Shown here: positions 12,923 through 32,000 of the stretch, one piece after another
How positions within the stretch are numbered: the first letter of the stretch is position 1
How the letters are laid out: each line of letters opens with the position of its first letter
Assembly: GCF_001997385.1 (NCBI RefSeq)
Contig: NZ_CP019633.1
Span: forward strand, 2,760,001-2,792,000
DNA: 32,000 nt
Origin: Sedimentisphaera cyanobacteriorum
Lineage (GTDB): Bacteria > Planctomycetota > Phycisphaerae > Sedimentisphaerales > Sedimentisphaeraceae
Reading direction: 5' to 3'
Notes under the pieces: generated by a model
Database searches by the model: none
Seen by the model: only the letters and a program-made list of their open reading frames with translations
What the model was told of the DNA's origin: nothing
Translations under genes and position numbers: made by a program

Positions 12923-13591
12923 TTATTCTTCTTCCTGCTCCGTAGTATGGCGAACTATCTTGCCTTCAATCATATATATAACATCTTCTGCGATGTTGGC
13001 TGCATGGTCTGCAATCCTCTCGAGGCTCTTTGGTATGTTCAGCAGCTGCATATAATTCTCAAAATCGCTGTCTATTTCGGTAATCCCTTTTCGAATTTGT
13101 TCTGAGATTTCGATATTAAGCCGGTCGATCTCATCGTCCATACCCCTCACCTGCTTTGCGAGGGTCTGATCCATCTCAACGAGGGCATCGAGGCTTTTTT
13201 GCAGCATTAGCTGCACTTTCTGAGCCATATCCACATAATCCGGCTCAACGCTTACCTGAAAATTCTCGGCAATGCAGGGAACCCGCTCGGCGATTTTAAC
13301 AGCAAGATCGCCAATTCTTTCAAGGTCGTTGTTTATCTTCAAAACTGATACAATGAACCTGAGATCTATCGCTACAGGCTGATGAAGTGCAAGAACCTTC
13401 AAACATTCCTCTTCAAAATCAACCTCCATCTCATCGATCATTATATCTTTTCTGATAACCATCTTTGCAAGCTTTAAGTCCCTGTTTTTCATTGCTATAG
13501 TAGCCTGCTGTACAGCTTCTTCTACCAGAGACCCAAGCTTCAAAACCTTGGTTTTTAATTTTTCTATTTCTCTTTTCAGATGTAAAGACAT
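12923..13591 (-). CDS. phoU: phosphate signalling complex protein PhoU
   Basis: Two PhoU repeats with LERIGDLAVKIAE and LERIADHAANIAEDVIY plus acidic DEMEVD / DDEIDRL motifs; last gene of the pst cluster. Confidence 0.9.
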   Translation of the reverse strand: MSLHLKREIEKLKTKVLKLGSLVEEAVQQATIAMKNRDLKLAKMVIRKDIMIDEMEVDFEEECLKVLALHQPVAIDLRFIVSVLKINNDLERIGDLAVKIAERVPCIAENFQVSVEPDYVDMAQKVQLMLQKSLDALVEMDQTLAKQVRGMDDEIDRLNIEISEQIRKGITEIDSDFENYMQLLNIPKSLERIADHAANIAEDVIYMIEGKIVRHTTEQEEE

Positions 13592-13632
13592 CTTACACTC
13601 CTGTCCTGCTGCCTAAACGCTGAGGCGATAAA

Positions 13633-13980
13633 TCAAAATACCCTGCTGTCGTTGGATGTGTAAATTAGAACTTCTTTCGAGCCGTCTGTGAGGTTTATCT
13701 GCCCTTTTTCCCCCATGGAAAGCTGGGCGGATTTGTATTCGAAGTCTTTATCAAGCACGTTTACTATCTCTATCCTGCTCCACGGCATTATGCGATACTC
13801 AACTTTGCCGACTTGAATGTCCCTTACGGTATTTACATTTTTCCCGAAATGAAAGGTTTTGCATTTAAGCAGAACATAAGTGCTGTTAATCTCTGAGGGC
13901 TTTCCGACGAATATATGATTCTTCGCTTCAGGGTAGCTTTTTACAGAACGAACTTTCCATACGCATTCTTTGGCGTTCAT
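13633..13980 (-). CDS. hypothetical small protein embedded between pstB and phoU
   Basis: ORF with AAGGA RBS 7 nt upstream of ATG 13980 (the track starts at TTG 13986); co-oriented with 64-nt and 41-nt gaps to pstB and phoU; no recognisable motif, beta-rich composition. Confidence 0.55.
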   Translation of the reverse strand: MNAKECVWKVRSVKSYPEAKNHIFVGKPSEINSTYVLLKCKTFHFGKNVNTVRDIQVGKVEYRIMPWSRIEIVNVLDKDFEYKSAQLSMGEKGQINLTDGSKEVLIYTSNDSRVF

Positions 13981-14050
13981 TTTCAAATCCTTTTACCTAA
14001 TACTGAACTTCCGAGTCTATTATACTCTCTAATAAGCTTTGGTTCAATAA

Positions 14051-14818
14051 TTATCCAAACCGGCCGGTTATATAATCCTCTGTGGATTTTTCCTGCGGGT
14101 TTGTGAATATCTTGTTGGTATTGTCGTACTCTATCAAATCCCCCATGCAGAAAAAAGCAGTAAGCTGGCTAACTCTTGCCGCCTGCTGCATACTGTGGGT
14201 TACCATTATTATCGTGTAGTAGTCTTTGAGCTCCTCAACAAGGTCTTCTATTTTGCCTGTGGCGATCGGATCCAGCGCCGAGCAGGGCTCGTCCATCAGA
14301 ATCACCTTCGGCTTATTTGCAATTGTCCTTGCAATGCAGAGCCTCTGCTGCTGACCGCCTGAAAGGGCAAGTGCGCTTTTGGCAAGATCATCTTTAACCT
14401 CGCCCCAAAGCGCAGCCTGCTTGAGAGAAGTTTCCACTATCTCATCAAGGCTGCTTTTCTTCTGGACGCCCTTGAGTCTCGGCCCGTATGCGATGTTGTC
14501 ATATATGCTCTTGGCAAACGGATTGGGCGTTTGGAAAACCATCCCTATCTGTCTTCGCAGGTTTACGAGATTGATCTTGTTGTCGTAGATTTGCTGACCG
14601 TTTACCGTGAGCTCGCCCTTCGTTGAGCAGTTCGGTATCAGATCGTTCATACGGTTGATGCTCCGCAGGAAGGTGCTTTTCCCGCAACCGCTCGGGCCGA
14701 TTATCGCTGTTACTTTCCTCGGGAATATATCCAGTGTGATATCCCTCACGCCAGCGTGACTGCCGTAGTAGAAGTAGAAGTTTTTCGCCCGTATTATGCT
14801 TTCCTTTTTATTTGCCAT
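14051..14818 (-). CDS. pstB: phosphate ABC transporter ATP-binding protein PstB
   Basis: Walker [10 protein letters not shown], signature LSGGQQQRL, Walker [13 protein letters not shown], PstB-typical [20 protein letters not shown]-terminus. Confidence 0.95.
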
Positions 14819-14828
14819 ATATAACCTG

Positions 14829-16457
14829 CTATTTTTGTCCTTTTAGCTTCGCACTCATCCTTGAACGAATGCATATTGCTATGATGTTTAGTATCAGTAC
14901 AAGCAGGATAAGCGTTGCCACCATCCCGTACTGCTTGTGTGGCACCTGCATTGCAAGCCTGTCTCCCACTGCTATATCGTAGCTGCCGTATGATAGAGTT
15001 CTTGTGGGCGAGAATATGCTGTCTGGAATAGGCCCGAGAGCTACAGCACCTGTGAAAAGTATTGGGGCTGTTTCGCCGGCAGCCCTCGATAAACTAAGAA
15101 TAATTCCGGTGAGAATGCCGGGCATTGCCGCAGGCATGGTAACAAAGATAAATGTAGAAAAGTTGCCCGCTCCTAAAGCCAGCGAAGCCTCTTTGTATGT
15201 CCTGGGCACTGCCCTTATTGCCTCTTCGCTCGCCCTGATTATCACTGGAAGCACAAGTACAGCAAGAGTCATTGATGCCGTTAAAATGCAGGCCTGAGGT
15301 TGTTTGCCGAATAAAGGCAGAAGGTACATCACAAAAAACGCCATGCCGAAAAGACCGAAAACAATACTGGGAACGCCTGCAAGGGTGTTGATAAAGCCCC
15401 TTATGATCTTAACAACTATATTCTCGCCTGCACATTCCACAAGATACGCTGCTGCTGTGATTCCAAGCGGGATAGACATCGCCATAGCAAGAAGAGTAAG
15501 CGTTAGAGTACCGATTATCTCCGGACCGACGCCGCCGAAATAATGTCCGGGTGTGCTGTCGTCTATGAAATACTGCCAGTAGAAGGTTGTTTTGGGCTTC
15601 AGGATTTCTTTTGCCTTTCCAGGAAGTACATCAAAGAATGCCTCGAATTCTGTTCCTTCGAATGTCTTTCTGCGATCAACCTTCTTCTTCGCAAGGGCTG
15701 CTGTGCCTTCCTGTTCCACCCACTTGGTTTTGTGAATTATCTCATCAATAACTTTTTGAGCCATATCCCAGCGAGTAGCCCCATACTGTTCCATAATAAG
15801 GGCAGGTTTTTCTGCGCCCGGGGCAGGTCCGAAGAGCTCTTTTATAAGCTCCTTAATACGCACAAGATCTTCCTTGTACTGGTCTCTCTTGGAGAAGTCT
15901 ATTTTTTTGCTTGTTTGCTGAAAACGCTCAGCAAGTGTGAATATTTTCTCAAACGCAGTGCCTTGAAAGTCTTTATTATCCTGCTCAGCAAAAACCTTTT
16001 CTAAAAAGCTGTTCACCTTTTCTGAATCTTCGCTCTCAATCGCATCGAGAAACAGATCCCGAACTTCTCTTGCCTTTCTTCTCTTGCCGCTGTATTCATC
16101 GTAAGGCAAATCCAGGCTTCTAAGATTTCTGCTGTATTTTCGATAGACATCTCTGGCACTGTCATACATCTCAGAAGTGTCTATGCCAACATTGAAATCT
16201 TCAATCATCTGATGGAGCTTCCGTCTTTCCTTCTGCCCCTGATTTATCTCAGCAAGCACCTCTTCTTTGCTGCCTCTTGAATGCTCTTCAAGCTGAAGCC
16301 TTCGGAATTCGCTTGTGCCTTCAAATACAACTGCCGTAAAGCCTTTGGCGAGCATTGGCCCCAAAACAACAATCAAAGCCAGGACAAGCAGAATTACAGA
16401 AACGTTCGCTGATAATGTAAAAAGCTTATCCTTGATATGCCTTAATTTCTCTCTCAT
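14829..16457 (-). CDS. pstA: phosphate ABC transporter permease PstA, long form with N-terminal soluble insert (DUF3333-like)
   Basis: C-terminal permease core with EAA-type loop ([22 protein letters not shown]); one N-terminal TM then about 260 charged residues; start overlaps the pstC stop (ATGA). Confidence 0.9.
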
Positions 16458-17425
16458 CAGCGTTTACCTCCCATAGTTCTCTTGAAGCTCGAGGTGAATA
16501 TCTCGCTGAGCAGATTGAGCAGCATAGTGAATATCAGCAGAAGAACGCCGAGGGCAAACAGAGCGAATCTGTGTTCTGAGCCTTCAGGTGTTTCCCCCAT
16601 TTCTCCAGCGATTGTTGCGGTCATCGTTCTAACGCTTGCAGATACATCCCACCAAGGGCTCGGGAACTGATTGGCATTCCCCGATGCCATCCATACTACC
16701 ATTGTCTCGCCTACAGCCCTCATCACTCCCAGTATAAATGCGGCTATTATCCCGCTGTGTGCAGCTGGAAGAACAACTTTCATCATAGTTTCAGCTCTTG
16801 TTGCTCCAAGCCCGTAAGATGCCTCTCGGATATCTCTGCCTATAGAAGACAGGGCGTCTTCTGCAACGCTGATTATCGTAGGAAGAGCCATAACAGCCAG
16901 TATGATGCCTGCGTTCAGAGCGTTTGTGCCAGTGGAAAAGCCGAAATGATCCTGAAGCCAAGGTGCAAGCACAAGCACAGCAAAGAAGCCGTATGCAACT
17001 GAAGGGATTGCAGCTAAAATTTCAATAACAGGCTTAACAATCTGCCGAAGCCGGAAAGGTGCTATATCGCTTAAAAAAACCGCACTCAGAAGACCAATTG
17101 GAGAAGCTATGAGCATCGCAATCAGCGTTACGTAGAAAGAGCCGGTTACTATCGCAAGGGCTCCAAACTCTGCATCTTCAGCCTGAGGATACCATTGATC
17201 GCTCGAAAGAAACTCTGTCCACTTGCCGCTGACTATAAAAGGCCAAGCCTGCTTCATCACGAAAAACAGAATCAGAAGTACAGCAACCACAGAAAAAGCA
17301 GTGATGCTGAAAAGAACGGCTCTGCCTATATGCCTTCCCGCATAGCCGGCAATGTCCTGCCCGGGGGTAAGCAGCAGCGGCAGGTCGAATTCGTTTTTGT
17401 TTTTCTTGTTATTCTGCACGTTCAT
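16457..17425 (-). CDS. pstC: phosphate ABC transporter permease PstC
   Basis: Six-TM permease with EAA loop (EASYGLGATRAETMMKVVLPAA); first gene of the pstCAB order. Confidence 0.9.
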   Translation of the reverse strand: MNVQNNKKNKNEFDLPLLLTPGQDIAGYAGRHIGRAVLFSITAFSVVAVLLILFFVMKQAWPFIVSGKWTEFLSSDQWYPQAEDAEFGALAIVTGSFYVTLIAMLIASPIGLLSAVFLSDIAPFRLRQIVKPVIEILAAIPSVAYGFFAVLVLAPWLQDHFGFSTGTNALNAGIILAVMALPTIISVAEDALSSIGRDIREASYGLGATRAETMMKVVLPAAHSGIIAAFILGVMRAVGETMVVWMASGNANQFPSPWWDVSASVRTMTATIAGEMGETPEGSEHRFALFALGVLLLIFTMLLNLLSEIFTSSFKRTMGGKR

Positions 17426-17455
17426 CCCAAAAGATTCATAAAAAACAGGTTTTTA

Positions 17456-17509
17456 GCTTGCATCCTCTGCAAGCGAATCTCTATCCTATATGCAGGAGGA
17501 TTTTCCTGC
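17456..17509 (-). promoter_or_regulatory. two stem-loops in the presumptive pstC leader
   Basis: GCTTGCA-TCCTC-TGCAAGC (17456-17474) and GCAGGA-GGATTT-TCCTGC (17492-17509), 31-85 nt upstream of the pstC ATG. Confidence 0.3.
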
Positions 17510-17576
17510 TTGTATTTTTCCTCAAAGCTATTTTATGCAAAAGATACATATATAAAATTAAATTTTACTGAGAAAA

Positions 17577-17640
17577 TGTTAAAACACGGTGAGCGAAAAA
17601 TTAGCATAATGTTAGAAAAACTGTTAAAAGGTATTAAAAC
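17577..17640. promoter_or_regulatory. Pho-box-like direct repeats (TGTTAAAA-type) in the pstC / esterase divergent intergenic region
   Basis: TGTTAAAAC (17577), TGTTAGAAAAAC (17610), TGTTAAAAG (17622), TATTAAAAC (17632); start spacings 33, 12 and 10 nt, near the helical repeat. Confidence 0.3.
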
Positions 17641-17738
17641 ATTTCTTCTTTTTCTGAAATTTAACTTTTCATTATTCATCAGCCGGTTATTATATTAATC
17701 TAAAAGAAACTGAAATTTATTAATATCCGGAGGTTTTT

Positions 17739-19733
17739 ATGAAGACTTTCAAAGTTTGTTTAATACTTTTCTTTGTTGGCGTTTCAGCGGCGTTTTCTGA
17801 TATTTGGATGCCTGCAATTTTCTCAGACGGTATGATTCTTCAGCGGGGAAAGGAAAATGTTATCTGGGGAACCTGCGAAGAAGGGCAGAAGGTTGAATTC
17901 AGCTCAAGCTGGATTCCCGGCAAAATGGTCCACAAACCGGATAACAGCGGCAGATGGGAATTCAGGTTTCTCCCGCCGAAGGCGGGGCAGGGCTATTCAA
18001 TAACCATAAAAACCCAGAAAGACCAGCATATTATCAACGATGTCTCCTGCGGCGAGGTTTGGGTGTGCTCTGGGCAGTCCAATATGGATACCAGCTCCAG
18101 CAGTTATCCCGATAAGTACAATCTTGCCGAAAAGATAGACCTACCAAAGGTGAAGATGTTCCACATCCCCCACACCCTCTCACGGACACCTGAAAAAGAT
18201 GTAGATGCTGAATGGTTCAAGGCAGTTTCTTCTGATCCCAGAACCTCTGAGTTCAGCGCAACCGGATATTACTTCGGCAAAAAACTTTACGATGAGCTGA
18301 ATGTCCCTATTGGTCTGATACATACCGCTTGGGGCGGTTCTCGCATAGAGCCGTGGACACCGCTTTGCGGGTATGAAGGAATCCAAAGGCTCTCTATGCT
18401 CAAAAAGAGCATAATAGAAGGTACACCCGGAACGCCGGAGTATAAAAAGAGAATGAAAAATTATTTCGCAAGCCGTAAAAAATGGCTCGATAGAGCTGAA
18501 GAAACGCTTGCAGAAGGCGGCTTCGTTTCTCCCGGGCCGGAATTCCCTGAAATGCCGGGAATGGGCAATAAAGGCGATGTCGGAATATACAACGCAATGA
18601 TTCACCCCATCGAAGGCCTTGCGATAAAGGGCTTTATATGGTATCAGGGCGAGGCAAACAGGGCTGACGGTATGCTCTATGCTTGGAAAAAGAAGGCCCT
18701 TGTAGAAGGATGGCGTAAGGTATGGGACGATTATACCCTCCCGTTCTATTATGTTCAGATAGCGCCGTATCAGTATGGAGATGAAGACCCTTCAATGCTC
18801 CCTCGCCTGCAGGCGGGGCAGGAGTATGCACAGAAAATTACAAAAAACACTGCGATGGTGATAGTGAATGATTTTGCAACAATAAACGATATTCATCCCC
18901 CGCAAAAAAGACCTGTAGGCGAGAGGCTCGCAGGGCTCGCTCTCAGCAGAGACTACGGTTTTGAAGATTTGAAGGCATACAGCCCGCAGTTTGAATCAAT
19001 GGAAGTTGAAAACGGCAAAGCGGTTTTGAGCTTCACCCATACCTACGGCAGCCTCAAATCCCGAAACGGCAAACCGCTTACTCATTTCGAAATTGCCTGG
19101 GAAGACGGCAAATTTTACAAGGCAAAGGCTGTTATAAGAGGTGATAAGGTGGTTGTATCAAGCGGGGAGGTTTCAAAACCGGATGCGGTGCGTTTTGCTT
19201 GGCACAAAACCGCCGAGCCCAATCTCGAAAACGCTGCTGGATTGCCTGCCGGGCCGTTTACTACCAATCTCGACGAGCTTATCCCCCCTGAGGGAGTAAA
19301 TCTTGCCCCTTACGGAAGCTGGAAATGCTCTGACAGAAATCCCTGGAACTGGGATTCCGGCCTTACAGACGGAAGCTGGGAAGGCAAAAGGGGCTCTTGT
19401 ATGGCTTCGGGAAGATCAGAAGAATTTCCAAAGCATATCCTGCTCGACCTTGAAGATGTGTGTAAAGTTGACAAGATCGTTTTCGGCGTTCCGAATTTCG
19501 GGTCAACCAAAGATGTGGATGTGTATGCAGGTAAGGACAAAGGCAATCTCAAAAAGCTTGCCTCCAAAACATTCGAGTTCAAAAAAGCCTCAAAACGTAC
19601 AGTGAATGCCGGCAGTAAGGATGTTAGATACGTAAAGCTTGTTTTCCGTGATAACTACGACAGAACAGCAGGCTACGATTCGGACTTTATCTTCATAACC
19701 GAATTGGAAGTCTGGGGCGTACCGGGCGAATAA
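17739..19733 (+). CDS. secreted sialate O-acetylesterase (SASA family) with C-terminal F5/8 type C (discoidin) domain
   Basis: Signal peptide; GEVWVCSGQSNM catalytic-Ser motif, HTAWGGSRIEPW, WYQGEAN; C-terminal discoidin-like domain ending ITELEVWG; GGAGG RBS. Confidence 0.85.
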   Translation: MKTFKVCLILFFVGVSAAFSDIWMPAIFSDGMILQRGKENVIWGTCEEGQKVEFSSSWIPGKMVHKPDNSGRWEFRFLPPKAGQGYSITIKTQKDQHIINDVSCGEVWVCSGQSNMDTSSSSYPDKYNLAEKIDLPKVKMFHIPHTLSRTPEKDVDAEWFKAVSSDPRTSEFSATGYYFGKKLYDELNVPIGLIHTAWGGSRIEPWTPLCGYEGIQRLSMLKKSIIEGTPGTPEYKKRMKNYFASRKKWLDRAEETLAEGGFVSPGPEFPEMPGMGNKGDVGIYNAMIHPIEGLAIKGFIWYQGEANRADGMLYAWKKKALVEGWRKVWDDYTLPFYYVQIAPYQYGDEDPSMLPRLQAGQEYAQKITKNTAMVIVNDFATINDIHPPQKRPVGERLAGLALSRDYGFEDLKAYSPQFESMEVENGKAVLSFTHTYGSLKSRNGKPLTHFEIAWEDGKFYKAKAVIRGDKVVVSSGEVSKPDAVRFAWHKTAEPNLENAAGLPAGPFTTNLDELIPPEGVNLAPYGSWKCSDRNPWNWDSGLTDGSWEGKRGSCMASGRSEEFPKHILLDLEDVCKVDKIVFGVPNFGSTKDVDVYAGKDKGNLKKLASKTFEFKKASKRTVNAGSKDVRYVKLVFRDNYDRTAGYDSDFIFITELEVWGVPGE

Positions 19734-19873: not shown

Positions 19874-19911
19874 TTTAAGAAAAAGAGAGTTAACCCCGAT
19901 TTCTCACTTAG
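19874..19911. repeat. IS left inverted repeat
   Basis: TTTAAGAAAAAG-AGAG-TTAACCCCGATTTCTCACTTAG; the 22-nt core 19890-19911 is the exact reverse complement of 21860-21881. Confidence 0.8.
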
Positions 19912-20040
19912 CGTTCAAAATCGTGAAAAATCAAAATTTTTTCTTTGATTCTGCGTTGTAATCGGCGTTTTAAAGTCTCTTTAGTCTCTGGTACAGACCT
20001 GCCCTATTGCAAGTGATTTTTCATCAGCAATAATATTGTT

Positions 20041-21801
20041 ATGTACTTGAAGAAGCACAAGCGAAAGAAGAATGGTAAGATCAATTCCTATTACAGCATA
20101 GCGGAGAAGCGTAAGGTTTCTCGCGGGCGTTATGTTGAGAAGATGGTGCTGTATCTTGGTGAAATCTCTGATTCTCAGAAGAAGTCTTGGCAGAGATCCA
20201 TTGAGATAATCAACGAGGACAACAAGCCTGTCCGCAAGTCATTATTCGCTTTTGATCAGGACAATCACACACATCACGACATAGATACGATTCCGGTAAA
20301 GCTCTCAAAGATGAAGCTTAACAACCCCAGAACATTCGGGGACTGCTGGCTCGGCTGCGAGATATGGGATATGCTGGGATTAGACACCTTCTGGTCGGAG
20401 AGGATAGACACTGCCAAATCGCCGGTTGACTATTCAAAAGTTGTAAAATTGCTGACAGTAAACCGTCTTATCAAGCCCGGAGCGGAGTTTTATGTCCACC
20501 GGCACTGGTTCACTCAGACCGCAATGGATGTATTGCTGGGCTGTGAATTTGATGTTGCCGAAAAAAACCGGCTTTACCGTTGTCTGGACAGGATATTGCC
20601 GTATAAAGAAGAGCTTTGTTCTTATTTGAAAGACACATGGCAGATGATGTTCAATCTGGAATATGACATTCTGCTTTACGATATAACCAGTACTTATTTT
20701 GAGGGATTATGCAAAAGCAATCCCAAGGCAAAATTCGGCCACAGCAAAGACCGCAGAGGCGATTGCAGGCAGATTCTTATCGCTTTGGTAGTTACCCCTG
20801 AGGGATTTCCGATCAATTATGAGATACTCGCCGGCAACACCTCAGAGAGAACAACGCTTAAACCCTTGTTAAACAAGATAGAGTCGAAATACGGCAAGGC
20901 AGGCAGGTTATGGCTGATGGACAGAGGTATTCCAACAGAAGCTGTGCTGGAGTATATGCGTGATAACGGGATTGATTATCTTGTCGGAACGCCCCGTAAG
21001 CTGCTGGATGAATTCCAAGAAGAGCTTTCTGTGAAAAGCTGGTTTGATGTAAATGGAAGCGTTCGCATAAAGCATATAGCCAAAGATGACGAATGCTATA
21101 TTCTTGCTCGAAGCAAAGAGAGAATGGCTAAAGAACGGGCTATGCGTAAAAGAAAGCTCCGTAATTACTTAGAAGGACTGGAGAAGTTAAAGAAATGCCG
21201 CAGCCGAGATGTTTTTATGCAAAGGCTCGGCAAACTCAAACATCAGGCGGGCAGCTGCCGTAAGTGTGTAACTCTTACGATTCCCCGAAATAAGGAAAGG
21301 ATTGAGAAGGGCGAGTTTGATTATAAGTTTGAAGCGAGCAAATATAAAGAAATGATATACCGCGACGGCACATACTTTTTGCGTACAAACCAGTCTGGCA
21401 AGGATGGTGCAGCCCTGTGGAAGGAATATATGCTTCAGTGCAACGTTGAGCAGGCATTCAGGGAGCTCAAGAGCGATCTGGGAATTCGTCCTGTCTATCA
21501 CCATAAGCAAGACAGGGTTGAGGCTCATGTGTTTGTAGCGTTTATGAGCTATTGTTTGCAAGTAACACTGAGGCATAAGCTCAGGGCAAGCGCCTGCGGG
21601 ATGACTGCTCAGGCGGCATTAGCAGCAATGTCTCGGATCCAGATGCTGGATGTTTCATTTGAAACGCAAGACAGCAGAACTCTGCTTATGCAGAGATATA
21701 CAGAACCGGAAGACGAACACAAGCTGCTGCTGCAGAAATTGAAGATAGAACTGCCGCCGCAAAAACCTCCGAAAATATACAGCGGGAAACTGAAAAAATA
21801 A
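20041..21801 (+). CDS. IS1634-family DDE transposase
   Basis: N-terminus MYLKKHKRKKNGKINSYYSIAEKRKVSRGRYVEKMVLYLGE typical of IS1634-family transposases; DDE candidates in LYDITSTYFEG, WLMDRGI and NVEQAFRELKSDLGIRPVYH. Confidence 0.9.
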   Translation: MYLKKHKRKKNGKINSYYSIAEKRKVSRGRYVEKMVLYLGEISDSQKKSWQRSIEIINEDNKPVRKSLFAFDQDNHTHHDIDTIPVKLSKMKLNNPRTFGDCWLGCEIWDMLGLDTFWSERIDTAKSPVDYSKVVKLLTVNRLIKPGAEFYVHRHWFTQTAMDVLLGCEFDVAEKNRLYRCLDRILPYKEELCSYLKDTWQMMFNLEYDILLYDITSTYFEGLCKSNPKAKFGHSKDRRGDCRQILIALVVTPEGFPINYEILAGNTSERTTLKPLLNKIESKYGKAGRLWLMDRGIPTEAVLEYMRDNGIDYLVGTPRKLLDEFQEELSVKSWFDVNGSVRIKHIAKDDECYILARSKERMAKERAMRKRKLRNYLEGLEKLKKCRSRDVFMQRLGKLKHQAGSCRKCVTLTIPRNKERIEKGEFDYKFEASKYKEMIYRDGTYFLRTNQSGKDGAALWKEYMLQCNVEQAFRELKSDLGIRPVYHHKQDRVEAHVFVAFMSYCLQVTLRHKLRASACGMTAQAALAAMSRIQMLDVSFETQDSRTLLMQRYTEPEDEHKLLLQKLKIELPPQKPPKIYSGKLKK

Positions 21802-21833
21802 CACATCTTTGGCGACAGACCAACCCCTCTGAC

Positions 21834-21860
21834 GGGGGTAAAAACGCACTTTTTACCCCC
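21834..21860. other. perfect 11-bp stem hairpin abutting the right IS end
   Basis: GGGGGTAAAAA-CGCAC-TTTTTACCCCC; its last nucleotide is the first nucleotide of the right inverted repeat. Confidence 0.6.
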
Positions 21861-21894
21861 TAAGTGAGAAATCGGGGTTAAACTTTTTCTTAAA
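21860..21894. repeat. IS right inverted repeat
   Basis: CTAAGTGAGAAATCGGGGTTAA-A-CTTTTTCTTAAA, reverse complement of the left repeat with a 1-nt versus 4-nt spacer difference. Confidence 0.8.
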
Positions 21895-22056: not shown

Positions 22057-22569
22057 TCAGTGCTCATGTCCTTCGTGCCCGTTATGTCCCCCGTGAGCGT
22101 GGCCGTTTTGGCCGCCGTAGGCGTGGCCGAAATCGTGAAGCAGCTCTCTTAAGTTTTCAATATGCTCGAAGTCTGTAGTCTGCTTTGTTTTCATCGCTTC
22201 CACAAGCATCTTGTGCAGGAGGGTGAGCTGGGTCTGATATTTATCGAACGCCTTTTCATCGCTCTTTTCTGCTGGCTTAATGCGCTGCGCCATATAGTAG
22301 TAGGTGATAATTTCCGAGAGCTGCTGGGCGTGCTGTTCCTTGTTATTCACCCATCTTACAATCTGGTTGTAATTCTTTTCTTCTTCCTCAGACAGCTCTT
22401 TAATCAGCCGCATCGATTTTTCGATTGTTGTGATATGCTCTGCCATCATTTTCATACGCATATCATCATCGTAGATCCCGCAGGGAATTTGGCAGTGCGC
22501 ACCTGCTGGCGAATAAAACATAAGCGCCGCAGCCAAGGCCGGAAGTACGAATAAAATCTTTTTTCTCAT
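22057..22569 (-). CDS. sodN: nickel-containing superoxide dismutase with Sec-type leader and His-rich C-terminal tail
   Basis: Residues 25-33 HCQIPCGIY = Ni-hook motif (His1, Cys2, Pro5, Cys6, Tyr9 of mature NiSOD); helical bundle-sized body; leader MRKKILFVLPALAAALMFYSPAGA; tail HDFGHAYGGQNGHAHGGHNGHEGHEH. Confidence 0.85.
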   Translation of the reverse strand: MRKKILFVLPALAAALMFYSPAGAHCQIPCGIYDDDMRMKMMAEHITTIEKSMRLIKELSEEEEKNYNQIVRWVNNKEQHAQQLSEIITYYYMAQRIKPAEKSDEKAFDKYQTQLTLLHKMLVEAMKTKQTTDFEHIENLRELLHDFGHAYGGQNGHAHGGHNGHEGHEH

Positions 22570-22700
22570 TTCAGTACCCTTTCAATAACAATTATCATTT
22601 TAAAAAGCTTTACACCCAGCCCCTGATGATTGTTCATTTTCATTTTTCTGAGCCTCGCAAATATCTCCGGGCAGGCAGCCCTCTGCTTTTCGCAAGCTTC

Positions 22701-25088
22701 TTATTTCCAGTTCTCAGCGAATACAGATAAATCCATCATATCTACTGATGAGTCCATATTGAAATCGCACCTTGTTTTCGTTTCGCTGCTTGAGCCGGCG
22801 AGCCATTCTGAGATAAACAGCGATAAATCCGCAAGGCTGATCTCCAGATCGCTGTTTATATCGCAAACAGTTTTGTTCCAGCTGCTGTGAACATTGGAGA
22901 AGATTACGTCTGAGAGTTTGCTGTCGTTATGTGCTGTAACGCACAGTCCTGCCCTGAACCCGCCTGTAATATCTATGGTTCTCGAGCCCACCTCTCGCCA
23001 GTCTGAGCCGTTGGAGGAGTAGTATCCGGTTAGAAGGCTGCCTGCTTTTTCCAGCCTCAGCCATCCTGAAGAGCCGCCTGAGGCGTCTTTAACGCTGTCG
23101 CTCTCACCGGCCTGCTGCTCTCGATACTGGAAGCTCGCTCCCTGACCGGCAGTGCACGCTATCATTGCGTGTTTGGAATCGCTGCTGAGGCTCTGGCGAA
23201 CCATCAGTCCTGCCTTTGCCCAGTCGCTTGTATTTACCATACTCTCAACCTTTGCGGTTATAAATCCGTCTGCCTCGCCGACAAAGCTTGCGTAATGGAA
23301 ATTGTCTGATGAGCCCCATATATCATCTCCGCCTCCGCAAACGGTGTATATGCCTTCTGAATAATAGCATTTCCCGTTTTCTGAAGGAGAGCCTATATCG
23401 CGGGCATCCCAGCCAAGAGGCAGGCTGTTGTCTGCCTGATTGGGTCTTGTAGGCTGATTGCGGTAGATAAGGCCGGTGGAGGTGAGCTCCCCGTCCTCCA
23501 TAAAGGTGCCGAACCCACCGTTCGGCTCGAAATACGAGTACCTTTCAACATAACCTATCTTTTCGAGATAAGGAAGTGCAAGCTCCAGAAAACCATCCTG
23601 AATCGGCCTCTGCCTGAATTTGTTGGCGTTGAATTCTGTTATCCATATTGGTTTTTTGTATAATGTATGAACGCGGTTTAAATAATTCTTGAACCGACGG
23701 AAAACATTCGCCGGATTCGGGTTTGTGTTATTTTCGGGATTGCTGCCCCAGTCGTACCAGTGCACGCCGATAAAATCCATCCGGATATCCTGCTGTTCTG
23801 CCAGATCAGCAAAGTAAGGCAGCCACGTAAAAACGGCATTCTCCCTGCAAGAAGGAGACCCGAGCCTGAGCCCTGCCATCTGGAGGTTGCTGAAATACTG
23901 AATAGACACTGTCTGGTCGCACATATTATACCACTGTCCGGACTGGTCTTCGCAGTTGTCCACTTCATTAAAGCCCAGAAGATGAGTTACATAAGGTTTT
24001 GATATATAATAGTCAATATCAGACATCTCATCCGCCCCGTTTTTCCCCCAGCTCATCGGAACGAATTCATACTCAGGCGAGGAGCTGCTTCCCGAGCCCC
24101 AGTTGTAGAACCACTGCTGGTTTACCGGTGAATCCCGTCCGGTGCATACCCCTTTTTTCCCGAGGAAATTCAACGCCAGCACACGCACAAACGAAACATC
24201 TCCTGCAAGTTCTGGAGGAAGGTTTACAATCAGATCTCTGTCGTAGGCGCTGTAGCAGCGGCTCCCGCCCGTTCCGTTTACGTTTACACCGAGAACGGCC
24301 TGATATCCCTGCTTCAGAAGTATTGAAGCGGCCTGATTATCTAAGCCGTTGGGGATATCTGACCCGCTGAAGATATCGAATGTGCCGATTTCGCAGGAAT
24401 CCCCGTAAAGGCCCTGCTGAGAATACATCGTAAGCGGAAGGCCTGTATCCGCAGAGCTAACCTTATGCAGAACGTAGCCGAGAAGCTGCCCGCTGGACCC
24501 GTCGTGATCGCCAAAGTTAATGCGCAGGGTTTCCTTTTCCTTTCTGCATCGCCATATCCCGCCGATCAAATCTGCTGTTGCGCCGGTGTTTCCGTTGAGA
24601 AATGTGCTGTCCAGCTCACCGCTGAGGTCCTCATCCACGGGGAATATCATCTCCTGTCCGCACCAGCTCCATGAAGGCCCTGTTATCGCCTGAAGCCTGT
24701 AGCTCTCTCCGGGCTCCAAATCGGTGAGTGCTATCTCTATAAATCCGTTCCAGCCGGATCTGATGCCTGTAGAGATGAAATTCAAGGCATCTGAATCCGA
24801 AGGGTCTGAAAGACTGGCTGTGTATTTGCTGAAATTTTCAAAATCCCCGCCGCCTGAGGATATATTTCCTGTTTCGGTGGAGAAGCTGATTCCTGCTATG
24901 ACTGCTGAATCGGCATTATTCCCGCAGTTAACAGCGGCCGTGAGCTCACCGGTATTCTGGATTTGGTCAGGAAAAATCAAATCATTAGATTTGAAAAAAG
25001 TTGAGGCATCCAGAGCCTCTGCGGGAATGGCAGGTGCTAGCATAATAAGTGTATAAAAAACTTTGCGGATACTGAATTTTGCAGTCAT
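22701..25088 (-). CDS. secreted glycoside hydrolase (Glyco_hydro_cc / GH128-like core) with N-terminal beta-sandwich region, ConA-like lectin domain and C-terminal dockerin-like module
   Basis: Signal peptide; WFYNWG, FVPMSWG, LGFNEVDN (acid/base Glu) and IWITEFN (nucleophile Glu) motifs of clan GH-A Glyco_hydro_cc; DUF1349/ConA-like segment DWAKAGLMVR...GWLRLEKAG...YYSSNGSDW; C-terminal DINSDLEISLAD...DFNMDSSVDMMD. Confidence 0.8.
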   Translation of the reverse strand: MTAKFSIRKVFYTLIMLAPAIPAEALDASTFFKSNDLIFPDQIQNTGELTAAVNCGNNADSAVIAGISFSTETGNISSGGGDFENFSKYTASLSDPSDSDALNFISTGIRSGWNGFIEIALTDLEPGESYRLQAITGPSWSWCGQEMIFPVDEDLSGELDSTFLNGNTGATADLIGGIWRCRKEKETLRINFGDHDGSSGQLLGYVLHKVSSADTGLPLTMYSQQGLYGDSCEIGTFDIFSGSDIPNGLDNQAASILLKQGYQAVLGVNVNGTGGSRCYSAYDRDLIVNLPPELAGDVSFVRVLALNFLGKKGVCTGRDSPVNQQWFYNWGSGSSSSPEYEFVPMSWGKNGADEMSDIDYYISKPYVTHLLGFNEVDNCEDQSGQWYNMCDQTVSIQYFSNLQMAGLRLGSPSCRENAVFTWLPYFADLAEQQDIRMDFIGVHWYDWGSNPENNTNPNPANVFRRFKNYLNRVHTLYKKPIWITEFNANKFRQRPIQDGFLELALPYLEKIGYVERYSYFEPNGGFGTFMEDGELTSTGLIYRNQPTRPNQADNSLPLGWDARDIGSPSENGKCYYSEGIYTVCGGGDDIWGSSDNFHYASFVGEADGFITAKVESMVNTSDWAKAGLMVRQSLSSDSKHAMIACTAGQGASFQYREQQAGESDSVKDASGGSSGWLRLEKAGSLLTGYYSSNGSDWREVGSRTIDITGGFRAGLCVTAHNDSKLSDVIFSNVHSSWNKTVCDINSDLEISLADLSLFISEWLAGSSSETKTRCDFNMDSSVDMMDLSVFAENWK

Positions 25089-27499: not shown

Positions 27500-29707
27500 T
27501 TAAATTATTGGTATGGTAAAGCAGAATGTTGACCCGCCTCGGTCGTTGGGTTCAACCCAGATATTCCCGCTGTGTTTCTGAACAATTTTCTTGCATATAG
27601 CCAGACCGATGCCAGTACCTTCGTATTCTGACCGGGAGTTGAGACGCTTAAATGTCTCGAATATTTTATTTCTGTACTCCTCGCTTATCCCTAAGCCGTT
27701 ATCTGCAACATTAATCTGCCAGTAGTTGTCTTTCATCTCTGAGCTTACAAACACCTCAGGTGCAGTGTCCTTTTTGTGGTATTTCAGGGCATTGCTGAGC
27801 AGATTAGTGAAAAGCCTGTACATCTGTGTACGGTCGCAGCGGACCATCGGCAGCTGTTCAATTTTCACTTTTGCCTCAAGCTCGTCGATTCTCGGTTTCA
27901 GGCTGTTTTTAGATTCTTCTGCAACCTCAGAGAGATTCCAAGCCTTGAATTCGTATTCATTAGACCCCGCACGCGAATAGCTGAGAAGGTCTTTTATAAG
28001 GGAATTTATCCTTTCAGAACCATCCTTTGCATATTTTATGTATTTCCAGATTTCCTGATTGGATGATTCCATCTCAGATTCGAGAAGGTCTAAATAGCAG
28101 GTAACCATTCTCACCGGCTCCTGAAGGTCGTGAGAAGCTATATAAGCAAACTGTTCGAGGTCGCTGTTGGATCTTTCGAGCTCCTGTTTTTTCTCTTCGA
28201 TTTCAAGACGCATCTTAACTTCCCGGGAGATGTCGTATATAAAGCATAAAATTTCATTTTGAGCGCTGTTTTCGCTGCTGAGCTGAGTTACTCTGATATC
28301 GTAGTATCTGCTGCTTCCCGGGAATTGGAATATCTCACGGAATTCCTTGTCCGAATCGATTGCTCTTTTGATTGAATCGAAGGCGTCGGTTAAGTTTATT
28401 GCCGCAGTTACATCGCAGAAGTCTCTGCCTTTGAGCTTTTCTTTTTTGCTGAAGCCGAGAAGTTCCGCTGCGTATTCGTTGTAGTCAATGCATCTGAAGT
28501 CTTTGTCGCAGCGTATTATTGCACCGGGAACGTTTCTTACAAGCGTATCAAGATACCTGTTTGCTGAGTGCAGTTTCTTTTCGGCTTTGCGTCTTTTCGT
28601 AAAGTTTATTGCGAGGATTGCTATTATCACAATAAGAAGCACTGTTATCAGTGAATACCAGCCTATAATATTTATCAGGCTCTCGGCAGTAAGCGGTTTC
28701 TTTGAAATAACAGGGTTGAGATTTTTTATTGGCTGGCAGTCTTTCCCAAATTTCTGGAGGTTGTCAAGATTTATATGCAGTCTGTTGTGCGGCTTGTCAA
28801 CCACTGACTGCCCGGCCAGCGCGGCCTTCCCATTGAGCACTCTTCCTGCAAATTCTCCCGCAATGGCTCCTTCTTGAAAAGGCTCTGTGGGATAGCCGCC
28901 GATAACTGCACCTTCCATATACGTGTAGTTTAATACGAATACAGGCATATTCAGCTTTGAAATGATCTGCACGAGACTTTTTGTGTCGTAGTATCTGCCC
29001 TGATCATCTCTCTGATAGTTCATAAGAAGTATGGCGTACTGATCTCTTTTTTTTCTAAGCTTCCCGCAGATTTGCTTGAAAGTTCCGTTTGTGAAGTATT
29101 CTATTTCAATTCCTTCGGGAAATTCTGGTCTGTGATTTTCAAAAAGCTCTATAGAGAGCCTTCCGGAAATGGTGTTGTCCTCGCATACAAAGGCAAGCTT
29201 TCGTTTTGGGAATAGCTTTTGAACCACTTCAACGGTTTCAATCACCATCGGATGCTCTGTAAACACCCTTACCGGCCTGTTCCAGTTTTCCAGCAGATTG
29301 GTTTGATTCCAGTTTATTCCGCAGGCTATCAGCGGGGTGGCAGGGTAGAATGTTTCATCGTTCTTTTTCAGGAGTCTGAAGGCGGCATTGTCGCATGATA
29401 TAATCAGGTCAACATCGCTTACGTTCTGATATTTTGTTTTGAGCATTTCGAAGAATTCAGAAAAATATTTTTCCGAACTAACCCTCTTGGCATCCAGATA
29501 CTCAGAATAAATGTGCGCCTCAGGACAGACTTTTCTGACCTCTTCGGTGATACCGCTCTGGATTTGTTTGGTCCATGGGTATTCAGGCGAATAGGACTGA
29601 ATCACAAGAACATTTTCTGCTTGAGCACGAAGCCCGTCGGCAAAAAACAATACAGAAATCAGGATTATGATTATTTCTGTTATTTTCAGCTTGGGAAGGT
29701 AAAACAA
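27500..29707 (-). CDS. sensor histidine kinase: periplasmic ABC-substrate-binding-like domain, TM, PAS, HisKA, HATPase_c
   Basis: Signal/TM1, VLVIQSYSPEYPWTKQIQSGI (ABC_sub_bind-type sensor), TM2 IIGWYSLITVLLIVIIAILAINF, PAS region, H-box IASHDLQEPVRMV, N-box LLSNALKYH, G-boxes DNGLGI / GTGIGLAICKKIV; TTG start with AAGGGG RBS. Confidence 0.85.
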   Translation of the reverse strand: MFYLPKLKITEIIIILISVLFFADGLRAQAENVLVIQSYSPEYPWTKQIQSGITEEVRKVCPEAHIYSEYLDAKRVSSEKYFSEFFEMLKTKYQNVSDVDLIISCDNAAFRLLKKNDETFYPATPLIACGINWNQTNLLENWNRPVRVFTEHPMVIETVEVVQKLFPKRKLAFVCEDNTISGRLSIELFENHRPEFPEGIEIEYFTNGTFKQICGKLRKKRDQYAILLMNYQRDDQGRYYDTKSLVQIISKLNMPVFVLNYTYMEGAVIGGYPTEPFQEGAIAGEFAGRVLNGKAALAGQSVVDKPHNRLHINLDNLQKFGKDCQPIKNLNPVISKKPLTAESLINIIGWYSLITVLLIVIIAILAINFTKRRKAEKKLHSANRYLDTLVRNVPGAIIRCDKDFRCIDYNEYAAELLGFSKKEKLKGRDFCDVTAAINLTDAFDSIKRAIDSDKEFREIFQFPGSSRYYDIRVTQLSSENSAQNEILCFIYDISREVKMRLEIEEKKQELERSNSDLEQFAYIASHDLQEPVRMVTCYLDLLESEMESSNQEIWKYIKYAKDGSERINSLIKDLLSYSRAGSNEYEFKAWNLSEVAEESKNSLKPRIDELEAKVKIEQLPMVRCDRTQMYRLFTNLLSNALKYHKKDTAPEVFVSSEMKDNYWQINVADNGLGISEEYRNKIFETFKRLNSRSEYEGTGIGLAICKKIVQKHSGNIWVEPNDRGGSTFCFTIPII

Positions 29708-32000
29708 AACGTTGACCCCTTGCCTAACTCAGATTCAACCCAGATTGCGCCCCGATGTCTATCAATAATTTTCTTGCAGATAGCCAGCCCAACACCCGTT
29801 CCGCGAGCCTCGGGTTTCTCGTGCAGCCGTTTGAAAATGGTAAAGATCTCTTTACGCATACTTTCCTCTATGCCGATGCCGTTATCCTTGACGCAAATAC
29901 GCCAGATTCCGTCAATAGATTCGGCATAAATTTCCACTTTTGGCTTCTGACCAGCTTTATTAAAACGTACAGCATTGCTTATAAGGTTCATAAACACCCT
30001 GTATATCTGCAATCTGTCGCATTTCAGCGTCGGCAAATCATCAATGCTGATCTCTGCTTCAGTTTCGTCAATGAGGCCTTTAAGGTCTCCAGCAGCCTCT
30101 TCAGCAAGCTCTTTGAGATTGGCCTGTTCGAGATTGAGATCTTTGAAGCCCGCCTTTGAAAACTGCAGAAGGTCATTTATAACGCTGTATATCTTCAGGC
30201 TGCCGTTTCTTGCAAATTTCAGGTATTCTTTTGCCTCGCCGTTTACATCTTTTTCTTCCAGTTCGGAATCAAGCAGGTCAAGATAGCAGGTGATTGTTCT
30301 CACAGGCTCCTGAAGGTCGTGTGAGGTTACATAGGCAAACTGTTTCAAATCTTCATTGGTCTGCCTAAGTTCAATATTTGCCTGCTCAATCTTTTCCCGA
30401 TCTTTAATAGATTCCGTTATATCATCTATTATAACGATATACGCACGTTTTAAAATACTTTCTGAGGCGTTTTTTTGCGGAGTTACCCTTACTTTAAGAG
30501 TTTTTTCAGATTGCCCGGAGCTTTCTGCGGCTTCCTCCGAGTGTTGTGTTTTGGTTATAAAATCGGTTGCTTTATGATTTCTTATATCTTCGAGTCTGTC
30601 CTCAGGTATGGCGATGTATTTTTCAAAAAAATCTCCTGTAATTTCTGACTCGTTTTTGACCTCCAGAATCGAGAGGCAGTTTCTGTTTACAGAGAGGATT
30701 TCCCTGTCGAAGTTTAGCATCAAGATACCCGCAGGAGCCTGCTCGAAGATCTCACGGAAAAATTCTTCATTTTCCTTGATGCTGTTTTCTGCATATATCC
30801 GGACTAAAGCATTAACAAGAGGCTCGGAACATATCTTCAGCATACTTTCGCAGTTTTCGCCCCAGTCCGAGCTGTCATTTTTGCTGAGAAACACGCTGCA
30901 AACGCCCGAGCCCACAAAGCTCCTGAAGCAGATTGAGTTTTCGGGTTTTGTTTCGCAGAATTTATTCAGATATTCTCTTTCCTGATCGTTTAATGAAACG
31001 TTTTGAAGATTGAGAATATTATCTTCAAACTTTGGTGTAAGGCTTTCGGGCATCTCCACGAAGTTTGTAGAGCTCAGGGTGAGCTGGCCGTGAACGTGTT
31101 CATAGCTGTAAATGTCTGAAAAGAGCTCGTCAGATTTTCTGTATTCGAGCGTGCAGCGGTCAGCTCCGGTGTAGGAGCATAAAGAGCGGAAGAGGTCTTT
31201 GAGCATATAGTCAATGTTGTCGTTATTGAGCTTTGCGATATTTTCAAGCGAATCGGAGAGCGATTTCTCGAAGTCTATCCTCATCTCTAATTCTTTCTTA
31301 GACCGAACCTTTTCAGTTCTGTCTGAAACAATAGTTGCAAGGAAGCCTTCTTCTGGGCTTGCCGCTGTTATCTCAAAATATCTGTCTGAAGTTTCAGAGA
31401 ATGCCTCAAAAAAAATCTTTGACCCCTCTTCAGCGGCTACCCTGTAATTATCAATCCAATCCCGTTCCTCGGGGCAGAGCACGCCTATCCTGCTGTCCCT
31501 GTAAGCCGGTTTAATGCAGAGATTTTCAAACTGCTGGTTTGCTTCAATAAGGTAAAAGTCTTCAAACTCCCCGTCATTATATTCTGTACGGTAAAGGGCA
31601 AAACCGGAGGGCATATTCTGGAAGAGCTTCTTGAAACGGTTCTCCTCGGAAAACTGTCTGAACGTTGCGCTGATTCGTTTTACAGTATTGTTGAGCACCT
31701 CACCGGTAACTCTGAGAACACGAAGGAGATTTTGATTGAATTTCGGAGGATAATTTATGCTGTCCAGAGTTATAAAGCCGGTAAGTTCTTCATTTTCAAA
31801 TATGCCTGTAAACAGCGATGATTCAGCGAGCTTTTTCTTGAGGAATGTCCTTTCCCCTCCGGATTCTTCAGATATATCATCCAGTGAACTTATGAAGATA
31901 GAGCCTTTTTCTTTCAAAACCTCTACGAACATCGGAATGCTTTGTGCAGGTATGCTGCTGAAGTCATCAAGCTCAACTTCCGCCTTTTCGACCGCCCATT
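29686..32000 (-). CDS. cytoplasmic multi-PAS/GAF sensor histidine kinase (5' end probably beyond the window)
   Basis: H-box VTSHDLQEPVRTI, N-box LISNAVRFN, G-boxes DNGIGI / GTGVGLAICKKII; upstream PAS/GAF-like segments, no TM; frame stays open from ATG 31932 to nt 32000. Confidence 0.85.
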   Translation of the reverse strand, partial: WAVEKAEVELDDFSSIPAQSIPMFVEVLKEKGSIFISSLDDISEESGGERTFLKKKLAESSLFTGIFENEELTGFITLDSINYPPKFNQNLLRVLRVTGEVLNNTVKRISATFRQFSEENRFKKLFQNMPSGFALYRTEYNDGEFEDFYLIEANQQFENLCIKPAYRDSRIGVLCPEERDWIDNYRVAAEEGSKIFFEAFSETSDRYFEITAASPEEGFLATIVSDRTEKVRSKKELEMRIDFEKSLSDSLENIAKLNNDNIDYMLKDLFRSLCSYTGADRCTLEYRKSDELFSDIYSYEHVHGQLTLSSTNFVEMPESLTPKFEDNILNLQNVSLNDQEREYLNKFCETKPENSICFRSFVGSGVCSVFLSKNDSSDWGENCESMLKICSEPLVNALVRIYAENSIKENEEFFREIFEQAPAGILMLNFDREILSVNRNCLSILEVKNESEITGDFFEKYIAIPEDRLEDIRNHKATDFITKTQHSEEAAESSGQSEKTLKVRVTPQKNASESILKRAYIVIIDDITESIKDREKIEQANIELRQTNEDLKQFAYVTSHDLQEPVRTITCYLDLLDSELEEKDVNGEAKEYLKFARNGSLKIYSVINDLLQFSKAGFKDLNLEQANLKELAEEAAGDLKGLIDETEAEISIDDLPTLKCDRLQIYRVFMNLISNAVRFNKAGQKPKVEIYAESIDGIWRICVKDNGIGIEESMRKEIFTIFKRLHEKPEARGTGVGLAICKKIIDRHRGAIWVESELGKGSTFCFTFPS

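Follow-up and report, generated by a model that had tools for sequence, protein, structure and literature searches.

What has been learned of the biochemistry of nickel superoxide dismutase (NiSOD) comes almost wholly from the cytoplasmic enzymes of Streptomyces and from work on cyanobacteria, all of it on systems that depend on the maturation protease SodX. The gene considered here appears to belong to another branch of the family. It lies on a 32,000-nucleotide stretch of DNA from Sedimentisphaera cyanobacteriorum (NCBI RefSeq assembly GCF_001997385.1, contig NZ_CP019633.1, positions 2,760,001 to 2,792,000 of the forward strand; this whole stretch is called the window throughout), and its sodN-like product, a candidate for an exported NiSOD, carries a hydrophobic leader directly in front of the nickel-binding hook and a histidine-rich tail at the opposite end. 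Its best homologue is a 156-residue protein of 94% identity, named 'superoxide dismutase [Ni]', from Sedimentisphaera salicampi, which we take to be an anaerobic planctomycete of the class Phycisphaerae.

Gene, fold and leader

The features of the gene are listed below in window coordinates, each with the evidence on which it was called; His1, Cys2, Cys6 and Tyr9 are counted from the first residue of the hook.

22057..22569, minus strand: sodN-like gene of 170 codons plus stop, NiSOD precursor (open reading frame list, Pfam, S. salicampi match)
22498..22569, minus strand: predicted Sec-type signal peptide, residues 1-24 (MRKKILFVLPALAAALMFYSPAGA), with a predicted signal peptidase I cut after Ala24 (leader anatomy, homologue pattern)
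22471..22497, minus strand: Ni-hook HCQIPCGIY, residues 25-33, with the His1 amine and imidazole, the Cys2 and Cys6 thiolates and Tyr9 (translation)
22114..22467, minus strand: predicted four-helix bundle body, residues 35-152 (AlphaFold2 model, Foldseek)
22060..22137, minus strand: His-rich C-terminal stretch, residues 145-170, 8 His in 26 (translation, His count)
22069..22110, minus strand: insertion of 42 nt, 14 codons (QNGHAHGGHNGHEG), missing from the S. salicampi orthologue (DNA alignment, protein comparison)

A first-pass annotation, made from the letters of the window, had placed a NiSOD at 22057-22569 with its hook at residues 25-33, leaving the strand unstated. The plus strand is broken by many stops, and translation of the minus strand bears out both claims: the 170-residue product opens with MRKKILFVLPALAAALMFYSPAGA, followed by HCQIPCGIYDDD, and the Pfam Sod_Ni model (PF09055), which that annotation had proposed as a check, matches residues 22-151 with E=4e-30 and a score of 105.4 bits, above its cutoff of 25. 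Across 74 homologues His25, Cys26, Pro29, Cys30, Gly31 and Ile32 are invariant and Tyr33 is nearly so. An AlphaFold2 model with a mean predicted local distance difference test score (pLDDT) of 86 places helices at residues 35-61, 67-93, 105-130 and 134-152, with pLDDT 96-98 over most of the body. The top 11 matches of this model in the PDB, as found by Foldseek, are Streptomyces NiSOD chains only, at target-normalised template modelling (TM) scores of 0.69-0.81 and ~15% identity, and other helical bundles reach a TM of ~0.35. Because the hook is conserved, the model is a four-helix bundle and the top structural matches are all NiSOD, membership of the NiSOD family can be accepted on sequence and model together. 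Comparison with the S. salicampi orthologue over 153 codons gives a ratio of non-synonymous to synonymous substitution rates (dN/dS) of 0.05, indicating strong purifying selection; a chance open reading frame or a pseudogene is therefore ruled out.

The 24 residues in front of the hook have the three-part build of a signal peptide for the general secretory (Sec) pathway that the first-pass annotation had described: a basic n-region (MRKK, net charge +3), a 14-residue hydrophobic h-region (ILFVLPALAAALMF, mean Kyte-Doolittle hydropathy 2.64, the maximum over any eight residues of the leader being 2.89) and a c-region, YSPAGA, which sets Ala at both -3 and -1 directly before the hook. Two other classes of export signal were rejected, namely a twin-arginine translocation (Tat) signal, there being no RR motif and a single Arg in the leader, and a lipoprotein signal, there being no lipobox, with His at +1 and Cys at +2. 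In the AlphaFold2 model residues 5-17 stand apart as a helix of lower confidence, with a disordered linker between it and the hook. The leader is identical at 24 of 24 positions between the window protein and that of S. salicampi.

The same build recurs among more distant relatives. All of the closest homologues, taken as the best 120 of 3584 matches, have an n-h-c leader, 15-60 residues long (median 27) and with a maximum eight-residue hydropathy of 2.3-4.1. The residue at -1, before His-Cys, is Ala, Ser or Gly in 112 of them, Pro in 7 and Thr in 1; Lys or Arg occurs among the first eight residues in 117, an acidic residue (Asp or Glu) occurs in the last 20 leader positions in only 2, and the uncharged run has a median length of 19 residues. 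A search for diversity across 1.84 billion representatives at 50% identity returned 888 clusters at E<=1e-3; the hook is present in 138 of the best 150 representatives, and 92% of these 138 carry a signal-peptide-like leader. Over the closest homologues and the representatives, leaders have median lengths of 24-27 residues and maximum eight-residue hydropathies near 3.0, whereas none of 120 Streptomyces precursors, with 14-residue leaders of hydropathy 0.65-1.38 (median 0.93), qualifies. In the survey of leader type that the first-pass annotation had proposed as a check, a leader of this kind is thus the rule in the clade and not peculiar to the window protein. Furthermore, pairwise identity across the clade is 27% in the leader against 65% in the mature part, and such a pattern, conserved without conservation of sequence, is by all appearances the signature of a signal peptide under Sec selection.

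Maturation, relatives and the case for export

The SodN and SodX pair of Streptomyces and cyanobacteria (PDB 1T6U, 1Q0D; TIGR02753, TIGR02754) provides the natural comparison. Its SodN belongs to the same Pfam family, and the two proteins share an H-C-x-x-P-C-G-x-Y hook at the mature N-terminus, a four-helix bundle (predicted in the window protein; TM 0.7-0.85), a required cut exactly before His1 and small residues at -3 and -1. They differ in several respects. The leader of Streptomyces SodN is polar and 14 residues long, whereas that of the window protein is hydrophobic, of Sec type and 24 residues long; Streptomyces SodN is cytoplasmic and the window protein predicted to be periplasmic; the former lacks the C-terminal HxH or His-rich tail of the latter; and the Streptomyces gene belongs to a Nur/sodF circuit, in contrast to the linkage of the window protein's relatives with anaerobe oxidative-stress genes. 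Finally, sodX stands beside sodN in Streptomyces and is absent from beside the window gene.

This last difference was followed by two routes. Pfam scans of 23 long open reading frames across the 32-kb window found no Peptidase_S26 or S24 domain, and likewise no Ni transporter or chaperone, in keeping with the first-pass annotation, which had seen no S26 peptidase beside the gene; Pfam labels of the genes around six homologues (L001-L006) also include no S26 or S24. As positive control served a Streptomyces sodN locus, in which a divergently oriented Peptidase_S24/S26 gene of 144 residues lies 146 bp from sodN; it reaches 88 bits on TIGR02754, the model for the nickel-type superoxide dismutase maturation protease, and 55 bits on that for signal peptidase I. 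When this SodX was compared by phmmer with every open reading frame of 50 codons or more, both in the window and in 86 related loci taken with +/-6-10 kb, it matched only itself. Since SodX has no match in the window or these loci, unlike the control, sodN of the signal-peptide type is unlinked to sodX over this material.

An alternative is that the enzyme is cytoplasmic after all, its hydrophobic leader being an unusual propeptide that would be removed by an S26 protease resembling SodX, with its gene in another part of the genome. SodX is itself a homologue of signal peptidase, as its score on the signal peptidase I model attests, and classical propeptides also end in V-S-A, so that the cleavage-site rule does not separate propeptide from signal peptide. 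The search for sodX in this genome covered the 32-kb window, and some sodN-bearing cyanobacteria have no recognisable sodX, according to a paper that also records sodN in planctomycetes and other phyla (PMC8346466); the linkage of sodN to sodX is therefore not absolute. Against this stand the loci themselves, none of the 86 having an S26-like neighbour where the Streptomyces control has one, and the leader, whose charged start, uncharged hydrophobic core of 14-19 residues and c-region of small residues are kept across hundreds of divergent homologues and would go unexplained without Sec. We regard a cytoplasmic location as quite improbable. Less credible still is that the hydrophobic segment serves as an uncleaved signal anchor tethering the protein to the membrane. 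The 14-residue core, with an uncharged stretch of up to ~19 residues in relatives, comes near the lower limit of a membrane span, but each of the 120 close homologues has a canonical A-x-A/S site placed exactly before the His, and the structures of the Streptomyces enzymes have established that NiSOD cannot coordinate Ni without a free alpha-amine on His1. An uncleaved protein would therefore be inactive, and we give this possibility next to no weight.

Relatives of the window protein occur in at least 595 species-representative genomes (one genome per species) from many phyla, and as thousands of metagenome proteins. A hydrophobic leader precedes the hook in all of the best 80 relatives, which come from Planctomycetota (Phycisphaerae, Sedimentisphaerales, Pirellulales) together with Omnitrophota, WOR-3, Aminicenantes, Calditrichota, Zixibacteria, Riflebacteria, Poribacteria, Eisenbacteria, Marinimicrobia, Kiritimatiellales, Desulfobacteraceae, Spirochaetales, Ignavibacteria and Acidobacteriota. 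A NiSOD with a signal peptide is thus common, and its bearers are for the most part uncultured lineages from anoxic habitats. Some members are further elaborated: P0253, P0268, P0249, P0353, P0259, P0276 and P0296 have long C-terminal extensions, that of P0253 being DUF6370 and that of P0268 (708 residues) giving a weak DUF4864-like match, while the other five have no Pfam match; P0245 and P0248 end in Cys/Pro/His/Lys-rich tails.

On long contigs the gene order runs Fur-family regulator, rubrerythrin, sodN, AhpC/peroxiredoxin, flavodiiron protein, desulfoferrodoxin, ferritin, rubrerythrin and rubredoxin, and three loci (L003, 4823-11308; L004, 5040-11005; L006, 5495-9130) hold apparent oxygen-defence operons of anaerobe type, with sodN, that include G6PD. 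Genes within 4 kb of sodN were clustered and tallied in 78 of 85 loci. Two clusters of rubrerythrins occur in 21 and 12 of the 78, a flavodoxin-domain (flavodiiron) protein in 16, AhpC/Redoxin in 15, Fur-family regulators in 13, ferritin in 11, desulfoferrodoxin in 10, 2-oxoacid:ferredoxin oxidoreductase subunits in 11 and 9, flavin reductase-rubredoxin in 7, G6PD in 5 and catalase in 4; the 20 commonest neighbour clusters include no Ni transporter, Ni chaperone or peptidase family. This context supports an antioxidant role, and it suggests a division of labour in which superoxide reductase and rubrerythrin would work in the cytoplasm and NiSOD outside the membrane.

The distance of the clade from characterised enzymes invites another alternative, an exported Ni-hook protein which is not primarily a superoxide dismutase and instead binds, buffers or delivers Ni in the periplasm, its His tail forming part of that metal handling. 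No chain in the PDB was found at E<=0.01 by a phmmer search with the protein against all PDB sequences, and a profile of 22 sequences gets no further than E=0.0016 with the Streptomyces NiSOD 1q0d, the alignment covering the hook and helix 1, the only part of the protein that aligns by sequence with a PDB NiSOD. The score on the NCBIfam sodN equivalog TIGR02753 is 41.8 bits, below its cutoff of 90, which places the signal-peptide clade, as a divergent one, outside that curated model. (NCBI names the sister-species protein NiSOD despite this score and the lack of a phmmer match in the PDB.) The tail resembles Ni-storage tails, and among secreted proteins in which His1 follows a signal peptide, many bind metals or assist in transport (PMC12537917). 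A role primarily in Ni handling nevertheless seems unlikely to us. The catalytic hook is conserved in full, including the substrate-gating Tyr9, NiSOD is the only helical bundle that the fold matches, and relatives have their gene in operons with rubrerythrin, AhpC, flavodiiron protein, desulfoferrodoxin and catalase rather than with Ni transporters or with hydrogenase or urease genes.

The explanation that best accommodates these observations, and one we consider likely, is that the window gene encodes a Sec-exported NiSOD matured by signal peptidase I with no need of SodX. The signal peptide would take the unfolded chain through the cytoplasmic membrane, where the housekeeping signal peptidase I (LepB type) would cut after A-G-A and make His25 the N-terminus. 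With Cys2 and Cys6, the free amine of His1 could next close around Ni(II) to form the Ni-hook, and the mature four-helix-bundle enzyme would clear periplasmic superoxide in an anaerobic planctomycete of the Sedimentisphaera kind. If secretion itself exposes His1, no sodX is needed: the general secretion machinery would be doing the job of SodX, a signal-peptidase-derived protease dedicated to cytoplasmic NiSODs. Thus, what the first-pass annotation had proposed, an exported NiSOD cut by the general signal peptidase, stands as regards family, leader composition and the lack of a nearby sodX, and the signal-peptide form is real and probably periplasmic. The arrangement, whose frequency that annotation had left to a database search, is neither rare nor undescribed, the leader architecture being widespread and already noticed in the literature. 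Besides the low equivalog score, two further points weigh against the proposal. Identity to the NiSODs of known activity or structure is only ~15%, so that superoxide dismutase activity is itself something we infer, and the two Cys thiolates must be free to bind Ni, when periplasmic Dsb oxidases could join them in a disulfide bond.

A variable histidine-rich tail

The last 26 residues of the protein hold 8 His, as the first-pass annotation had counted, against 5 in the other 120 residues of the mature part (binomial P=7e-6), and residues 153-170 are predicted to be disordered (pLDDT 58-63 in the AlphaFold2 model). In this strong local enrichment of His in a flexible terminus the tail resembles the His-rich Ni-binding tails of the HypB, UreE, SlyD and Hpn type. 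The 14-residue insertion supplies most of the enrichment, and the tail shows weak internal repetition (NGHAHGGH / NGHEGH).

How far such tails are shared was surveyed, as the first-pass annotation had advised, in 119 close homologues of normal length and 116 Streptomyces enzymes. An HxH motif occurs within the last eight residues of 60 of the homologues and a His within the last three of 69, and at least 8 His fall in the last 26 residues of 3; none of the 116 Streptomyces enzymes has any of these features. The endings are diverse (HGHAHG, HDHHDHDHHDHEH, HSHGHDHGH…), and tails that differ so widely suggest repeated independent expansion.

Two observations show how labile the tail is. Despite its 94% identity, the S. 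salicampi protein, whose tail ends in HEFGHAYGGHEH, is without 14 of the tail residues, and at least 5 His in the last 26 residues are found in 16 of the 119 homologues (13%; none of the Streptomyces enzymes). Lability of this kind fits neutral low-complexity expansion and a function equally well. The survey therefore yields a terminal HxH in about half of the homologues and a truly His-rich tail in few. With the tail so variable, the built-in Ni capture or storage of the first-pass annotation can be carried forward as a proposal and not as a property of the protein.

For that proposal there is nonetheless a reasonable basis. By analogy with the up-down four-helix topology of 1T6U, the C-terminus would lie at the hook end of the bundle. 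Battistoni and colleagues reportedly described, in 2001, a His-rich domain of some periplasmic Cu,Zn-SODs that is said to offer a precedent for metal capture in cis. Predicted disorder, position at the hook end and this precedent together make a role in local Ni capture reasonable; the most plausible function of the variable tail would be to raise local Ni(II) for loading of the hook, in a compartment without a known Ni chaperone. We rate the prospect of such a role at even at best, and perhaps appreciably lower. The competing view, that the tail has no role of its own and that a short C-terminal HxH motif has been lengthened neutrally by slippage-prone, low-complexity sequence, comes close to an even chance. 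It draws on the 42-nt insertion relative to a nearly identical orthologue, on the internal repetition and predicted disorder, and on the freedom with which tail length and composition vary, His being wholly absent from the last 30 residues in 6 of 120 homologues. It has more difficulty with the independent recurrence of His enrichment and of terminal HxH in the homologues when both are absent from the cytoplasmic Streptomyces enzymes, with the inferred placing of the C-terminus next to the N-terminal hook, and with the example of the Cu,Zn-SODs.

The locus and its place among known systems

The surroundings of the gene in the window are as follows.

12923-17425, minus strand: phosphate-transport cluster pstC-pstA-pstB-(117-aa open reading frame)-phoU (Pfam)
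19874-21894: insertion sequence in the spacer between the SASA esterase gene and sodN (transposase and inverted repeats)
20041-21801, plus strand: DDE transposase, DDE_Tnp_1 (Pfam)
22577..22596, minus strand: 5' leader with the imperfect palindrome GATAATTGTTATTGA (22582-22596), then a Shine-Dalgarno-like site, GAAAGGG (22577-22583) (sequence; conserved with S. salicampi)
22701-25088, minus strand: glycoside hydrolase of 795 aa, secreted-looking, with a Glyco_hydro_cc core and a C-terminal type I dockerin, immediately upstream of sodN (Pfam)

In the window sodN is monocistronic, and its neighbours are, as the first-pass annotation had named them, an insertion sequence and a glycoside hydrolase, both borne out by Pfam. 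The insertion sequence has terminal inverted repeats of 31 nt (19890-19920 / 21851-21881, 87%) and an outer 12-nt inverted pair, and it adjoins sodN just downstream; the corresponding spacer of S. salicampi is ~180 bp long and free of it. Synteny with the S. salicampi chromosome is one-sided. The stretch from 12924 to 19718 (phoU, pstBAC, SASA esterase) is 84% identical at the nucleotide level, and sodN with ~70 nt upstream is 91% identical; at the position corresponding to that of the glycoside hydrolase S. salicampi has a PAS/GAF histidine kinase, so that synteny breaks ~70 nt upstream of sodN. The conserved palindrome GATAATTGTTATTGA resembles a Fur/PerR operator and may be a putative one. 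Elsewhere in the window, the 117-aa open reading frame between pstB and phoU has no Pfam match and a 115-aa counterpart in S. salicampi, and two adjacent, overlapping genes for PAS-HisKA-HATPase sensor kinases of 735 and 748 aa occupy 27500-31932 on the minus strand, with no response regulator in the Pfam scans of the window's long open reading frames.

The closest systems are signal-peptide NiSODs of Planctomycetota and other phyla already in the databases, such as those of S. salicampi and Roseiconus lacunae (WP_230780104.1), which have the same order of signal peptide, His1 hook and bundle. The former also shares the synteny with SASA esterase and pstCAB-phoU, and the window copy is set apart from both by its His/Gly-rich tail insertion and the downstream insertion sequence. 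A 2025 paper treated the leader of the R. lacunae protein as a signal peptide before His1 and used it as search bait (PMC12537917); the architecture has thus been recognised, though not studied. The same paper deals with secreted His1 metalloproteins (LPMOs, CopC, DUF4198, Ang-1/2), in which signal peptidase I likewise makes a metal-binding N-terminal His; these differ in using a histidine brace for Cu (Ni in DUF4198), in having no Cys2 and Cys6 thiolates, and in their folds and functions. The periplasmic Cu,Zn-SOD (SodC) is likewise a Sec-exported superoxide dismutase, and its Haemophilus and Actinobacillus forms have a His-rich extension proposed to chaperone the catalytic metal where dedicated chaperones are absent, but it is a beta-barrel, uses Cu and Zn rather than Ni, and carries that extension, which has been studied experimentally, at the N-terminus. 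The NiSODs of eukaryotic algae carry ubiquitin as an N-terminal fusion partner (PMC6332867). Here too the part of SodX could fall to general cellular machinery, since deubiquitinases might expose His1 by cutting exactly before it. These enzymes are eukaryotic and cytosolic, and what precedes their hook is a folded ubiquitin domain in place of a signal peptide.

The window protein is therefore best described as an ordinary representative of its clade, which is very large, annotated in databases, already remarked on in the literature and experimentally uncharacterised; the papers searched include none that characterises an exported NiSOD or links such an enzyme to anaerobe oxidative-stress operons. 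What is specific to this copy is limited to the 14-residue insertion in a variable tail and the neighbouring insertion sequence, and the interest of the gene lies mainly in the clade-level picture rather than in this locus. The solved NiSOD structures found by our PDB profile and Foldseek searches are from Streptomyces only, while the signal-peptide form appears at least as widespread in sequence space as the SodX-dependent one. It is tempting to join all of these strands: the signal-peptide NiSODs would be the periplasmic arm of an oxygen-defence regulon of anaerobes and microaerophiles, replacing Cu,Zn-SOD, matured by signal peptidase I and loading themselves with Ni through HxH or His-rich tails; the exported form would be ancestral, and the cytoplasmic SodN and SodX pair of actinobacteria and cyanobacteria an internalised pair of signal peptide and signal peptidase, with SodX a soluble derivative of LepB and the V-S-A propeptide a degenerate c-region. 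Taken whole, we think this picture doubtful.

The clade offers a natural test case for metal capture in cis by His-rich tails, and periplasmic expression may provide a simple route to active heterologous NiSOD without SodX. If these enzymes are truly periplasmic, the maturation of NiSOD can pass to the general secretion machinery and there would be a Ni-dependent alternative to Cu,Zn-SOD for superoxide in the periplasm, one that would give strict anaerobes, which rely on superoxide reductase and rubrerythrin in the cytoplasm, an outer line of defence.

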